Assembly: GCA_963717505.1 (NCBI GenBank)
Contig: OY970342.1
Location: 1,152,001 to 1,216,000 of the forward strand
Length of the DNA: 64,000 nt
Direction of reading: 5' to 3'
Source: Candidatus Eiseniibacteriota bacterium
Lineage (GTDB): Bacteria; Eisenbacteria; RBG-16-71-46
Part shown: in pieces, positions 46,320 through 53,165 of the stretch
Position numbering within the stretch: position 1 is the first letter of the stretch
Layout of the letters: every line of letters starts with the position of its first letter
The notes under the pieces: model-generated
Database searches by the model: none
What the model saw: the letters and a program-made list of their open reading frames with translations, nothing else
Told to the model about the DNA's origin: nothing
Made by a program: the position numbers and the translations under genes

Positions 46320-47402
46320 CTACGGCATCACCAGAACCAGCCTCGGGTAGATGAGATTCTCGTTGGCGACTCGTTCGCGATTCAGATCCCAGATCTCGGG
46401 CCAGCGCGCCACGTCCCCCAGCTCGCGTTGGGCGATGAGGCTCAGCGTGTCCCCCGGCTTGACCGTGTAGTTCTTCTTGCCGGGCACGGGCTTCATGAAG
46501 ACCTCCGACGAGCTCGACAGGTACTCGCGCATCAGATCCGCGTACTGCGGCGTCGCCTTGAAGCCGTCGATTGCCTGGTTGATCTCGTAGACGAGGTCGT
46601 AGTTCCCCTTGGGGACGCCAACCGCGTACTTGGACTGGTTGAGGTTGTATTTCACGATGACGGTGCGTGGATGGTTCTTGATCTCCTCGGCGGCGAAGGG
46701 GTAGTCGTAGATCAGCGCGTCGGCCTGATCGTTCTCGACGGCTTCGAACCAGCCGTCGTCGCCCGAGAACTTGCTGATGTGCGCCCCCGGAATGTTCTGC
46801 TCCACCCACCGCTCGGCCGCCGGATCGTCGTAGATGGCGATGCGCTTCCCGGACAGATCGCCGGGCGAGCGGAACTGGGAGACCATGCCTTCGTGCACGA
46901 TCATGCACAGTCCGAAATCGAGGTATCCGTTCGACCAGTCGACACCCTCGATGGACGGATCGGGGACGTAGCCGGCCATGATGAGATCGATGTCGCCGGC
47001 GGCGAGCCGCGCCGGCAGATCCTCGTAGTCCGCCTCGAGCACTTCGACCTTCTTGGCGCCGATGGCCTCGGCGACGACGCCGGCCATGCGAAAGTCGAAC
47101 CCGTCCTCCTGCTTCCGTGCGTTCACGAAGTGGAGGGGCGGCGCGTCGGGCTCCATGCCGACACGCATCGTGCCGCTGCTCCGGACGCGAGCGAGGACGC
47201 CGCCCTGGGAGGAAGGCGTCCCGCGCGTGTCACCGCTCTCCTTCCGATCCGCGCTCGGCAAGCCGCCCGGGAGCTTGAAGGGCAGGCGGTCACGATAAGA
47301 CCATGCGGCAAAGCCGAGCACGGCCAGCCCCACGACGACGATCAGCAGACGGCCGGCCGCCGTGAGACGGACGGCACCTTTTTCCGATCCCCACATGTTC
47401 AT
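46320..47402 (-). CDS. Membrane-anchored PBPb (SBP family 3) + LysM protein
   Basis: TM, MRVGMEPDAPPL, EDGFDF, IDLIMAG, and C-terminal LysM YTVKPGDTLSLIA...NENLIYP. ATGA overlap with the oxidase stop. Confidence 0.88.
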   Translation of the reverse strand: MNMWGSEKGAVRLTAAGRLLIVVVGLAVLGFAAWSYRDRLPFKLPGGLPSADRKESGDTRGTPSSQGGVLARVRSSGTMRVGMEPDAPPLHFVNARKQEDGFDFRMAGVVAEAIGAKKVEVLEADYEDLPARLAAGDIDLIMAGYVPDPSIEGVDWSNGYLDFGLCMIVHEGMVSQFRSPGDLSGKRIAIYDDPAAERWVEQNIPGAHISKFSGDDGWFEAVENDQADALIYDYPFAAEEIKNHPRTVIVKYNLNQSKYAVGVPKGNYDLVYEINQAIDGFKATPQYADLMREYLSSSSEVFMKPVPGKKNYTVKPGDTLSLIAQRELGDVARWPEIWDLNRERVANENLIYPRLVLVMP

Positions 47403-49049
47403 CGACGTCCCTCCGTTGCACCGACCTCGACCAACATCGCCGAGGCGCCGCTGTCGGCCGGCGCCCCGCTCAATAGAGACATGACGGCCTTGGCGACGTC
47501 CAAGCCGGACTGCGCCGCGCCGTTCATGTATCCCTGAAAGTCGTAACTGCAGTGCTCGCCCGCAAAGAAGAGATTGCCGACCGGCATCCCCTCGGAATTG
47601 GCGATGGTGGTCCACTGGCCGGGCTTGTAGCAGGAGTAGCTGCCCTTGGTCCACGGGAAGGTCGGCCAGTGGAACCGGGACACCTTGCCGTTGCGCTTCG
47701 CCAGCGCACCCGGGTACGCGCGCTCGATCCCCGGCAAGAGCCGCGCCGCCGCCGCCTCGGCCGTGCCGTTGCCGGACTCGATGCCGAGCCGCCCGCCCGA
47801 GTAGAGCGTGAGCCCGCCCTCGGCGCCGGGCTGCAGGAAGCTGTTGTCCCAGGCGAGCTGGAACATCTCGTCCGAGTAGGTGGAGCCGGTGTAGCCCTGC
47901 TCGATCCACGGCCGGTTGCGGAACCCAACCAGAACCTTCGCGTTCGTTCCGTAGCCAAGCTCCTGAATCGCCTTCTTTTTGACCGGCGGCAGATCCACCT
48001 GCTCGAACGTCACTTCGCGCAACAGCGTGAACGGAATCGCCAGGACCACGACGTCGGCGTGCTCGTCCTTCGCGCCACTGTCGGTCTGGAAGGTCAGCGT
48101 GAATCCCTTGCCCCGGCCGCGAATGGCCTCGAGCCGGTGGCGCCTCTGAATCTGCGGAGCGACACGCCGGGCCAGTTCGTCCACGAGCTGCTGGTTGCCG
48201 CCGCGCACCTTGTAGCGCTCGTCGCTCTCGCCGAGCAGGTCGAACCGGGCCGCGTCGGCCAGGTCCCCCGTGCCGATGAGGAACAGGAAGTTGAGCGCCG
48301 ATTGCTCGCCCGCTTCCAACCCGTACTCCGTGACGTACGCGACATCGAGGACCTTGCGCAGCCAGCCGCTCGCACCGATCGAGTCGAGGTACTCGGCCAC
48401 CGACATCCGATCGAAGGTCGCCGCCGCCGCCTTCGGTCTGCCAGTCGACGACCTCGCCCATCGAGTCGTAGTGCTCCTGGATCTTCTTCGCCAGCGGCAC
48501 GAACTCGCGGGCCGCCTGGGCGATCGTGTAGTGCCGGCCGCCGACGAAGTACGTCTCCTTCTTGAGACGGCTCGCCTCGGGGTCCAGGGTGTCGAGCTGC
48601 CCGAGGCCGAACTCGTTCATCAGGGCCAGCATCTCCTCGTGACCGCTGTCGATGAATTCACCGCCCAGCTCGGTCGTGATCCCGGTGCCGAGGAGGTCCT
48701 TGGCCGTAAACATCCGGCCGCCGGTCCGGTCGGAGCCTTCGAAGACCTTTGCGGTCAGGCCGGCCTTCTGGAGCTTGTAGGCCGCGTTGAGTCCGGCCAT
48801 GCCGGCGCCGACGATGACGACACGGGCGGCGCCTGCGCCACGCGCGGACCCTGCCCGCGACGACTTCCCGGGGGTGCAGCTCACCATCGCCCCGGCGGCC
48901 GCCAGGGCAGACACCTGGAGGAAGCGCCGGCGGCTGTAAGCCATCTCGACCAGCTCGTCGAGCGGCGGGAGGTCCGTCCGTTCGCGAGCGGCCAGGGTCG
49001 CCAGCCGAATGGCGCGGTTGATCGAATCGAACAGGGGCGTTCGGGCCAC
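47399..49049 (-). CDS. Flavin monoamine-oxidase family protein with twin-arginine motif (frameshift ~48420)
   Basis: SRRRFLQ, GAGMAGL, RTGGRMFT, ELGGEFID in the first frame; GSYSCY, FAGEH, GYMNGAAQSG in the second frame (47399-48406). Confidence 0.85.
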
Positions 49050-49088
49050 GGTTACCTCCCTCGAGAACGTCGGGTCGATCCCCGGCGC

Positions 49089-52467: not shown

Positions 52468-53128
52468 GACCACCTCCCTGTGTCGTGGGCGGCACGGTGG
52501 CCGAGATGGGGTTCTCGGACACGAAATAGCGGACGGTGTCCGCGATCCGGTTCTCCTCCGCGCGCTTGCGGTCCCGCCATGCGGCGAGACTCGATTCCTC
52601 CTCGCGAACGTGCCGGTTGTTGGCGTCGATCTTCGCCCGGAGCTGGGCCACCTGCTGCTCGATCTCCTTCTCGAGGCTCCGATTTTCCGTCTCGCCGGCC
52701 GCGCGCAGAGCGGCGACCGTTTTCTCCAGCACCTTTTCGTAGGTGTCGAGGGCACGGTCGCGTTGCACCGCGTCTTCCACGATGCTGTCGACCGATACGC
52801 GGGCGGCATCCAGCGCCACCAGGATCGACTTTCGCTTCACGTCCTCGGGCAGGTCTCGCAGGTGCTCGCTGTCGAGCATCTCCGCCACCTTGAGGATGGA
52901 ATAACCGTGGGCGGGTGTGACGATCCGGGCCGCGGAATAGATCTCGTCGAAAACCGTAGGGTCGGCCACCGGCTTGGCGAACGCGGCTTCGGGAACGGTT
53001 TCGGGTGCGAGTTCTCCCGCCCGTCTCGGAGCCGCCGCCTTGCCTGATGGATTTGGTCGCGCCGGTGCGCCTTTGGCGTCGGCCGGACGGTCCGTCACCA
53101 CGAAAAAGTCATACCACTTCTTCGTCAT
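52448..53128 (-). CDS. Alpha-helical hypothetical protein (first gene of the PspA operon)
   Basis: MTKKWYDFFVV start, Pro/Ala linker, helical domain, C-terminal coiled coil; overlaps the pspA-like gene by 20 nt. Confidence 0.75.
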   Translation of the reverse strand: MTKKWYDFFVVTDRPADAKGAPARPNPSGKAAAPRRAGELAPETVPEAAFAKPVADPTVFDEIYSAARIVTPAHGYSILKVAEMLDSEHLRDLPEDVKRKSILVALDAARVSVDSIVEDAVQRDRALDTYEKVLEKTVAALRAAGETENRSLEKEIEQQVAQLRAKIDANNRHVREEESSLAAWRDRKRAEENRIADTVRYFVSENPISATVPPTTQGGGHVRENR

Positions 53129-53156
53129 GGTCGAGCCCCCTCGCAATGGGGCGGCA

Positions 53157-53165
53157 TTCTAGCAC
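53157..53165 (-). promoter_or_regulatory. Extended -10 promoter of the PspA-AAA operon
   Basis: TGcTAGAAT on the minus strand, 28 nt upstream of the ATG at 53128. Confidence 0.55.

Follow-up and report, generated by a model that had tools for sequence, protein, structure and literature searches.

The question of how bacterial ESCRT-III-type polymers (PspA, Vipp1) are disassembled was raised here by a run of six minus-strand genes, G1 to G6 (53128-46320), read from a stretch of 64,000 nucleotides (nt) of contig OY970342.1 of a Candidatus Eiseniibacteriota bacterium (the window): would an AAA+ ATPase encoded beside PspA remodel PspA polymers? An initial annotation had described the run as a candidate membrane-remodelling operon. 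With confidence slightly above even, the locus is read as an envelope-maintenance module in which the ATPase (G4) would remodel or recycle polymers of PspA (G2), with G3 as the anchor, G1 as an adaptor, and a periplasmic arm formed by an oxidase (G5) and a binding protein (G6). ATP-driven remodelling of PspA is a predicted activity and the best reading of these genes; observed directly were their linkage, the domains that they encode, and the conservation of catalytic and pore motifs in the ATPase.

Linkage of PspA to the ATPase

G2 (52467-51721, minus strand, 248 amino acids (aa)) is assigned to PspA/IM30, and with it to the ESCRT-III superfamily. It matched Pfam PF04012 (PspA_IM30) at 57.5 bits (cut-off 33.9; E = 2e-15), with residues 2-217 on profile positions 3-206 of 220. 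A profile of 30 ATPase-linked PspAs matched solved structures of Vipp1/PspA (Vipp1 6zvr, residues 1-199, E = 1e-14), and also sll0617 and further Vipp1 chains, which upheld the ESCRT-III homology claimed for G2. G2 was the sole PF04012 match in the single-contig genome of 4.16 Mb (estimated completeness 86.68%). In agreement with the absence of PspB and PspC noted before, the same genome held no match to PspB (PF06667) or PspC (PF04024), PspF not being searched for, and none to Snf7. Canonical Psp (PspFABC, E. coli) and Lia (LiaIH, B. subtilis) systems share with the locus a PspA-family effector and an adjacent membrane-anchored partner, but differ from it in that the genome is without PspB and PspC matches and in that G4 is not an enhancer-binding protein of the NtrC type and has no DNA-binding domain.

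Co-occurrence of the genes elsewhere, which the initial annotation had left to a neighbourhood survey, was found in three phyla. At least 588 ATPase loci were confirmed in a species-representative collection, and the best 80, from Acidobacteriota, Myxococcota and Bacteroidota/Balneolaceae/Rhodothermales, were searched with hidden Markov models (HMM) built from alignments made for this analysis. Linkage was counted in those 44 loci of which the upstream flank was complete to 10 kb. PspA was upstream of the ATPase on the same strand in 35 of them (9/9 Acidobacteriota, 9/14 Myxococcota and 17/21 Bacteroidota-like), G3 was present in 33, and G1 in 9, all acidobacterial. Because PspA stood 6.6-9.4 kb upstream of the ATPase in Myxococcota, some of the five loci there that lacked it may have it just beyond the flank. 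Within the window's own phylum, the ATPase occurred in 13 and PspA in 14 of 206 genomes; all 13 genomes with the ATPase carried PspA, and genome G042 alone had PspA without the ATPase. These genomes covered six families but are related, so the counts do not amount to an independent-sample statistic.

Gene order varied around this pair. The order of the window was kept, as far as the contigs reach, in loci L015, L025, L026 and L027 (in L027, G3-AAA-oxidase-PBP-LysM, where PBP-LysM denotes a binding protein of the G6 type). More distant lineages had the genes in other orders: the oxidase preceded G1-PspA-G3-AAA in L063 and L066, with the PBP-LysM gene of L063 nearby on the other strand, and L021 and L022 had the order G3-AAA-G1-PspA-PBP-LysM. 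In Thermoanaerobaculia (L034, L037) a bare G1-PspA-AAA unit lay between opposite-strand genes. The architecture PspA, NMT1-OmpA, permease, ATP-binding cassette (ABC) ATPase, G3 and AAA was found in L017-L020, L023 and L024. An ABC ATPase and a permease were present in L016-L020, L023, L024 and L099, and neither lay between 46320 and 53165 of the window. Longer architectures occurred in Myxococcota and Balneolaceae.

The window ATPase was 76% identical to that of genome G055, which belongs to a different family of the class. Apart from the window's genome, its family had a single carrier (1/88 genomes), G118, with an ATPase 48% identical to that of the window, in an ABC-type operon. This patchy pattern suggests transfer of the ATPase among Acidobacteriota.

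The idea of PspA remodelling by an AAA+ protein is already in print, which limits the novelty of the locus. According to the main text of Ravi, Anantharaman, Aravind, Gennaro et al. (mSystems 2024; PMC11237479), PspA lies beside a protein with two AAA+ domains, the N-terminal one inactive, and longer operons add a transmembrane (TM)-bearing Snf7 homologue, an ABC ATPase, a permease and PBPB-OmpA; ATP-dependent membrane remodelling, likened to Snf7 and VPS4, is proposed there. That the same function was predicted for the operon class supports the remodelling reading, and the computational neighbourhoods of PspA, AAA and solute-binding proteins that the initial annotation mentioned are those of this paper. 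As described in that text, the class has in common with the window PspA and a two-domain AAA+ protein on one strand, a TM helical protein, and a protein that joins solute-binding and peptidoglycan-binding domains; its architecture was reproduced by the own-phylum loci L017-L020, L023 and L024. The window differs from it in having no ABC ATPase or permease, in carrying SBP_bac_3-LysM for PBPB-OmpA, and in adding G1 and a Tat amine oxidase. The published TM partner is called a Snf7 homologue, whereas G3 of the window has two TM helices and no detected similarity to Snf7 or PspA. Neither LysM nor amine oxidase is mentioned in the main text of that paper, the supplements of which may list such a variant. 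The elements that are new here are the Tat amine oxidase, the G1 partner, and LysM in place of OmpA in an operon that has no ABC transporter. As stated in the initial annotation, there appears to be no experimental characterisation: full-text literature searches turned up no experiments on a classic AAA+ ATPase linked to PspA, and in Popp et al. (2022) AAA appears in the reference list only.

The ATPase, the PspA tail and the helical partners

G4 (50828-49089, minus strand, 579 aa) is placed by its sequence among classic-clade AAA proteins and outside the Vps4/CdvC family. Pfam AAA matched residues 324-449 (63.8 bits), and the scan at E ≤ 0.1 returned AAA, AAA_lid_3 and AAA_16 only, with no MIT, no Vps4_C, and no helix-turn-helix or other DNA-binding domain. 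The nearest solved relatives of the AAA domain were the D2 domains of Cdc48/p97/VAT (E = 9e-43), followed, among the first 60 matches, by NVL, Afg2, NSF and FtsH. NCBIfam scores were 68 bits for CDC48, 48 for PAN, 45 for FtsH and 27.3 for CdvC, all far below the model cut-offs (for example CDC48, 802; CdvC, 650).

The motifs of an active AAA domain were present: Walker A GPVGSAKT, Walker B IIDEAD, an aromatic pore loop SQWQGVTE (with W as the aromatic residue), and a conserved DLKRQGR stretch that is read as the arginine-finger region. The family alignment added a family-specific C-terminal motif, AV-x-ECT...LP. The ATPase motifs were conserved in 90 loci, and the DE of Walker B in every locus where the motif was parsed. 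The ATPase for which the initial annotation put forward a Vps4-style role is thus a classic-clade AAA protein with an intact Walker B motif and an aromatic pore loop, but by family it is not Vps4-like, and no MIT or Vps4_C domain was found.

The likeness to ESCRT-III with Vps4 or CdvC thus lies in an ESCRT-III-superfamily polymer protein encoded beside a classic-clade AAA protein with an aromatic pore loop, and the expected logic would be polymer disassembly by threading. The differences are that G4 has neither MIT nor Vps4_C, scores 27 bits for CdvC against 68 for CDC48, and has a degenerate AAA-like N-terminal domain, and that G2 is of the PspA/Vipp1 and not of the Snf7 type. Cdc48/p97/VAT together with FtsH and PAN are the closest sequence relatives of the AAA domain (E = 9e-43 to 1e-24). 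G4 shares with Cdc48-type unfoldases the Walker B motif, the pore loop and the residues of the second region of homology, but differs from Cdc48 and FtsH in that neither a double-psi barrel N domain nor a protease domain was detected in it, and in that a single AAA domain looks active.

Residues 1-290 of G4 are read as a degenerate AAA-like domain, with FILHGN in the place of the P-loop (no Lys-Thr) and VAVIFPYAE in that of Walker B; this reading agrees with the two AAA+ domains, the N-terminal one inactive, described by Ravi et al. (2024). In the ESM Atlas the N-terminal domain fell among unnamed clusters, the nearest cluster with a Pfam family having AAA on 40% of its members (score 0.91).

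The Walker A of the window (approximately 49830-49853) has Ala in place of the Gly before Lys. This form, GPVGSAKT, was found in 19 of 90 loci, all 19 acidobacterial (L015, L026-L029, L031, L032, L034-L039, L043, L048, L058, L061, L063 and L066), and G1 was present in 14 of the 15 with enough upstream sequence. The other forms were GPVGTGKT (60), GRIGTGKT (8) and GSVGTGKT (1), with two loci unparsed. Since GPVGSAKT is conserved across 50-77% identity, it would seem to be a selected, working variant.

Prediction of a complex of the full ATPase with full PspA scored 0.00 in both runs, with no controls, and counts neither way. PADLOC gave the ATPase a weak, AAA-level match to IetA (23.7 bits), and its membership of a known defence system was rejected.

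The C-terminus of G2 (51721-51790) reads TPTVGPRVAENRGS, and the tail pattern K-T/S/D-I/V/M-G-K/P/N is common to ATPase-linked PspAs. The motif [IVM]-G-[PKNSGR] occurred within the last 22 residues in 42 of 56 PspA frames of related loci and was missing in the Thermoanaerobaculia group. The tail is a possible recognition motif for the ATPase. The lone unlinked PspA of the phylum, that of genome G042, was without the terminal [IVM]-G motif, a single control and as such too few. It has F-x-x-L-E-G-G where linked PspAs have F-x-x-E-M-G, and because the two are similar, F-x-x-E-M-G was dropped as a mark specific to ATPase-linked PspAs.

In loci of the Balneolaceae type, an extra, short (approximately 130 aa) and weakly PspA-like frame sits between PspA and G3 (L056, L059, L069-L072, L076, L078, L079, L082-L084, L089, L097, L098, L101 and L102). 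These frames scored 27-46 bits with the PspA HMM.

G3 (51712-50825, minus strand, 295 aa) and G1 (53128-52448, minus strand, 226 aa) had no family in Pfam or NCBIfam. G3 is modelled as an inner-membrane protein in which two TM helices at the N-terminus precede a helical bundle: the AlphaFold2 (AF2) model from a 24-sequence alignment (pLDDT 79.1) has helices at 14-40 and 44-61 and a bundle at 83-271. An Arg-rich stretch follows the second TM helix, and by the positive-inside rule the C-terminal bundle would be cytoplasmic. Homologues of G3 amounted to 667 proteins at E ≤ 0.001, an unnamed family in which 0 of 120 listed members carried a Pfam domain. The C-termini of G3 proteins from all three phyla (50825-50850 in the window) have a short basic motif, for example RVR, RVKE or RKVTRR.

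G1 is a soluble helical protein; in its AF2 model (pLDDT 79.8) the N-terminal third is disordered, residues 60-108 form a small helical domain, and a lone helix of 87 residues spans 113-199. G1 fell in unnamed acidobacterial clusters only in the ESM Atlas, and its HMM matched directly upstream of PspA in 9 of 9 full-flank acidobacterial loci.

The comparison with ESCRT-III folds proposed for the helical proteins was negative for both G1 and G3, which have no similarity to ESCRT-III detectable by profile comparison or fold search. Against the PspA profile (hhalign), the probability was 3.2% for G1 and 1.6% for G3, and 0 of 24 G3 members matched the Snf7 or PspA_IM30 models of Pfam at E ≤ 1. Foldseek found no fold match for G1 (best E = 2.7) and, against the Protein Data Bank (PDB), nothing at E ≤ 0.001 for G3, with BAR domains and coiled coils (TM 0.2) in the top rows. 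The wide VIA-align search with G3 reached a best Z of 10.8 (designed helical bundles), in a range, up to approximately 13 for helical proteins, that may mean a mere common arrangement, and no ESCRT-III chain was among the 50 matches listed.

G3 bears on the strongest rival explanation, in which the substrates of the ATPase would be G3 or further membrane proteins, the ATPase being an extractase or assembly chaperone resembling Cdc48, FtsH or Msp1, and PspA would only stabilise the membrane meanwhile. G3 and the ATPase are the tightest pair, adjacent in own-phylum loci, the G3 stop and the ATPase start overlapping by 4 nt in the window and again in L027, L031 and L063; the AAA domain is nearest to unfoldases (Cdc48-D2, PAN and FtsH); and G3 has its conserved basic C-terminal tail. 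The explanation is nevertheless unlikely, as PspA is slightly the more frequent of the two in full-flank loci (35/44 against 33/44 for G3), and in the compact G1-PspA-AAA units of Thermoanaerobaculia (L034, L037) no G3 lies between or beside the genes, so that PspA, and not G3, is the constant partner of the ATPase there.

The periplasmic genes and the borders of the operon

The domain calls made initially (PspA, classic AAA, Tat flavin amine oxidase, and a TM-SBP_bac_3-LysM protein) agreed with Pfam, with TAT_signal below threshold on G5 (16.6 bits against 22.7). G5 (49049-47399, minus strand) had been taken for an intact gene, a one-base frame break at approximately 48416-48419 being overlooked. 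Its span is 1651 nt (3n+1), and its N- and C-terminal halves, both matched by Pfam Amino_oxidase, are in different frames. The extra base (GACC-TTCGAT) corresponded to a one-column gap in all three aligned orthologues, and three contigs from public runs were without one base at 48416 or 48419: X1, otherwise identical over 151 nt; X2, with 5 differences in 489 nt; and X3, an approximately 95% relative. Because three orthologues and three public contigs lack the base, the frame break is most likely an assembly error, if not an uncommon variant, and the organism itself probably has an intact oxidase. Programmed frameshifting was rejected on the same grounds. The frame of the window was left unrepaired, and G5 was analysed as its two halves and through the intact orthologue L027:2465-4096, which matched monoamine, putrescine and 4-methylaminobutanoate oxidases (1e-29 to 1e-22).

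The N-terminus of G5 (48876-49049), like those of L015, L026, L027 and L063, carries a conserved extension of approximately 38 residues, MARTPLFDS...PPLDEL. In the five oxidase orthologues the extension leads into a twin-arginine motif and a hydrophobic stretch, after which Cys58 is invariant, in a presumably lipobox-like context. The oxidase would accordingly be a lipoprotein exported by Tat, with a conserved and unusual leader on the cytoplasmic side. TatC was present in the genome, and a Tat substrate encoded in a PspA operon is plausible. For the oxidase, PADLOC gave 64 bits with a desaturase-type flavoenzyme model (C3a186) and a weak match to LmuA (24.2 bits); despite these matches, a part in a known defence system was rejected.

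G6 (47402-46320, minus strand, 360 aa) has an N-terminal TM anchor, SBP_bac_3 at 80-296 and LysM at 312-360. The nearest solved relatives of its binding domain were polar amino-acid binding proteins, and NCBIfam gave a weak match to the MltF N-terminal domain; G6 may sense a ligand. The fusion of a solute-binding with a peptidoglycan-binding domain recurred in PspA-AAA operons, with LysM in the window, L021, L022, L027, L048, L058 and L063, and with OmpA, as NMT1-OmpA, in L017-L020, L023 and L024.

By tblastn, the oxidase and the PBP-LysM protein were each beside the system in 6 of 91 loci; both are accessory parts, with a possible periplasmic function of their own. Two unrelated functions on one transcript, a cytoplasmic G1-PspA-G3-AAA set and a periplasmic pair for amine or amino-acid catabolism, would account for these low counts, for the minimal G1-PspA-AAA unit that exists without either gene, and for the membership of both in families of common metabolic and transport proteins. 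This explanation is distinctly unlikely, however: the solute- and peptidoglycan-binding fusion is found repeatedly, in two forms that are not homologous; the position of the linked oxidase in L063 and L066, only 33-52% identical to the window, differs from that in the window; and the operon of the window has no transporter for the binding protein to serve.

The packing described for the six same-strand genes was reproduced from the sequence at every junction: G1 and G2 overlap by 20 nt, G3 follows G2 after an 8-nt gap, the TTG start of G4 lies within a TTGA overlap, G5 follows G4 after 39 nt, and G6 overlaps G5 by ATGA. A convergent gene that ends at 46268 closes the operon. Upstream, metG, which reads as a methionyl-tRNA synthetase gene, ends at 53217, 88 nt before G1; as it is on the same strand, read-through from it into G1 is conceivable.

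The extended -10-like element TGCTAGAAT (53164-53156, minus strand), 28 nt before the start codon of G1, was the one match to TGNTADAAT in the 64-kb window. The promoter element proposed initially is unique in this sense, but 0.24 matches are expected by chance and 24 of 100 shuffled sequences had at least one, so that the element is weak evidence taken alone; a two-hexamer sigma-70 scan found zero sites and no -35 partner for it. The three terminator-like sites of the window were not above the level of shuffled sequence.

Two overlapping plus-strand frames at 55143-56572, divergent from the tRNA-synthetase gene, presumably resemble an extracytoplasmic function (ECF)-type sigma factor followed by a possible anti-sigma protein.

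Proposed mechanism and meaning

In the envelope-maintenance module proposed here, PspA would polymerise on the cytoplasmic face of the inner membrane, where the hexameric ATPase would engage it, possibly through its conserved C-terminal tail. By pore-loop threading the ATPase would unfold or extract PspA subunits, and the polymer would be recycled or remodelled, in a manner functionally like that of Vps4 on ESCRT-III though the ATPase is nearer to Cdc48-D2. G3 would anchor or position the machinery at the membrane, and may also have the role of nucleator suggested for it initially; G1 would have an adaptor or a regulatory role. G6, anchored in the membrane, would bind peptidoglycan and an amino-acid-like ligand on the periplasmic side, and the Tat-exported oxidase, probably a lipoprotein, would act on an amine in the same compartment; through the two, membrane remodelling could be coupled to a signal from the cell wall or from an amine.

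Several observations weigh against this module. The ATPase falls outside the Vps4/CdvC family and lacks a detected MIT domain, and replacement of Gly by Ala before the Walker A Lys weakens nucleotide binding in some P-loop proteins. No PspA was found within 10 kb in 9 of the 44 full-flank loci, among them four of Rhodothermales/Bacteroidia that had neither PspA nor G3 within that distance. The scarcity of the oxidase and of the PBP-LysM protein, noted above, bears on the periplasmic arm; the roles of G1 and G3 are guesses, as neither has recognisable fold relatives; and no RNA run was listed among the 22 runs checked for expression.

A regulatory or sequestering partnership of the ATPase with PspA in the manner of PspF, with availability controlled and no polymer disassembled, is very unlikely: a review describes how PspF, an AAA+ protein of E. 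coli, is bound and inhibited by PspA, and GPVGSAKT could mean weak ATPase activity, but Pfam matched no DNA-binding domain in the ATPase, which is of the classic clade and not of the NtrC type, with the conserved aromatic pore loop typical of threading enzymes and an invariant Walker B DE wherever it was parsed.

A bolder extension of the module is possible, yet short of probable. At least three phyla would own an independently evolved machine of the ESCRT-III/Vps4 type, in which a Cdc48-D2-like ATPase with a dead N-terminal AAA domain would recognise a dedicated PspA by its short conserved C-terminal tail, [KQ]-x-[IVM]-G, as an analogue of the MIT-interacting motif (MIM), and would thread PspA so that membrane-bound polymers come apart. 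In Acidobacteriota, G1 and a periplasmic arm for sensing peptidoglycan and amines (TM-PBP-LysM and the Tat amine oxidase) would act as the gate. A passage of a 2025 review (PMC7619361) has a Vps4-like ATPase apparently absent in bacteria; if the extension is true, reviews that deny bacterial PspA an ATPase dedicated to its disassembly would have to be revised.

The ATPase family is large, at the number of loci given above, and tightly linked to PspA. Its carriers include Myxococcus, Corallococcus, Gracilimonas mengyeensis DSM 21985 and Fodinibius sediminis DSM 21194, and because culturable, non-pathogenic strains have the family, the question of what the ATPase does to PspA is approachable at the bench. 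The variant in the window offers leads of its own: the compact G1-PspA-AAA core, the conserved tail of PspA, and a periplasmic arm that may reveal the signal.

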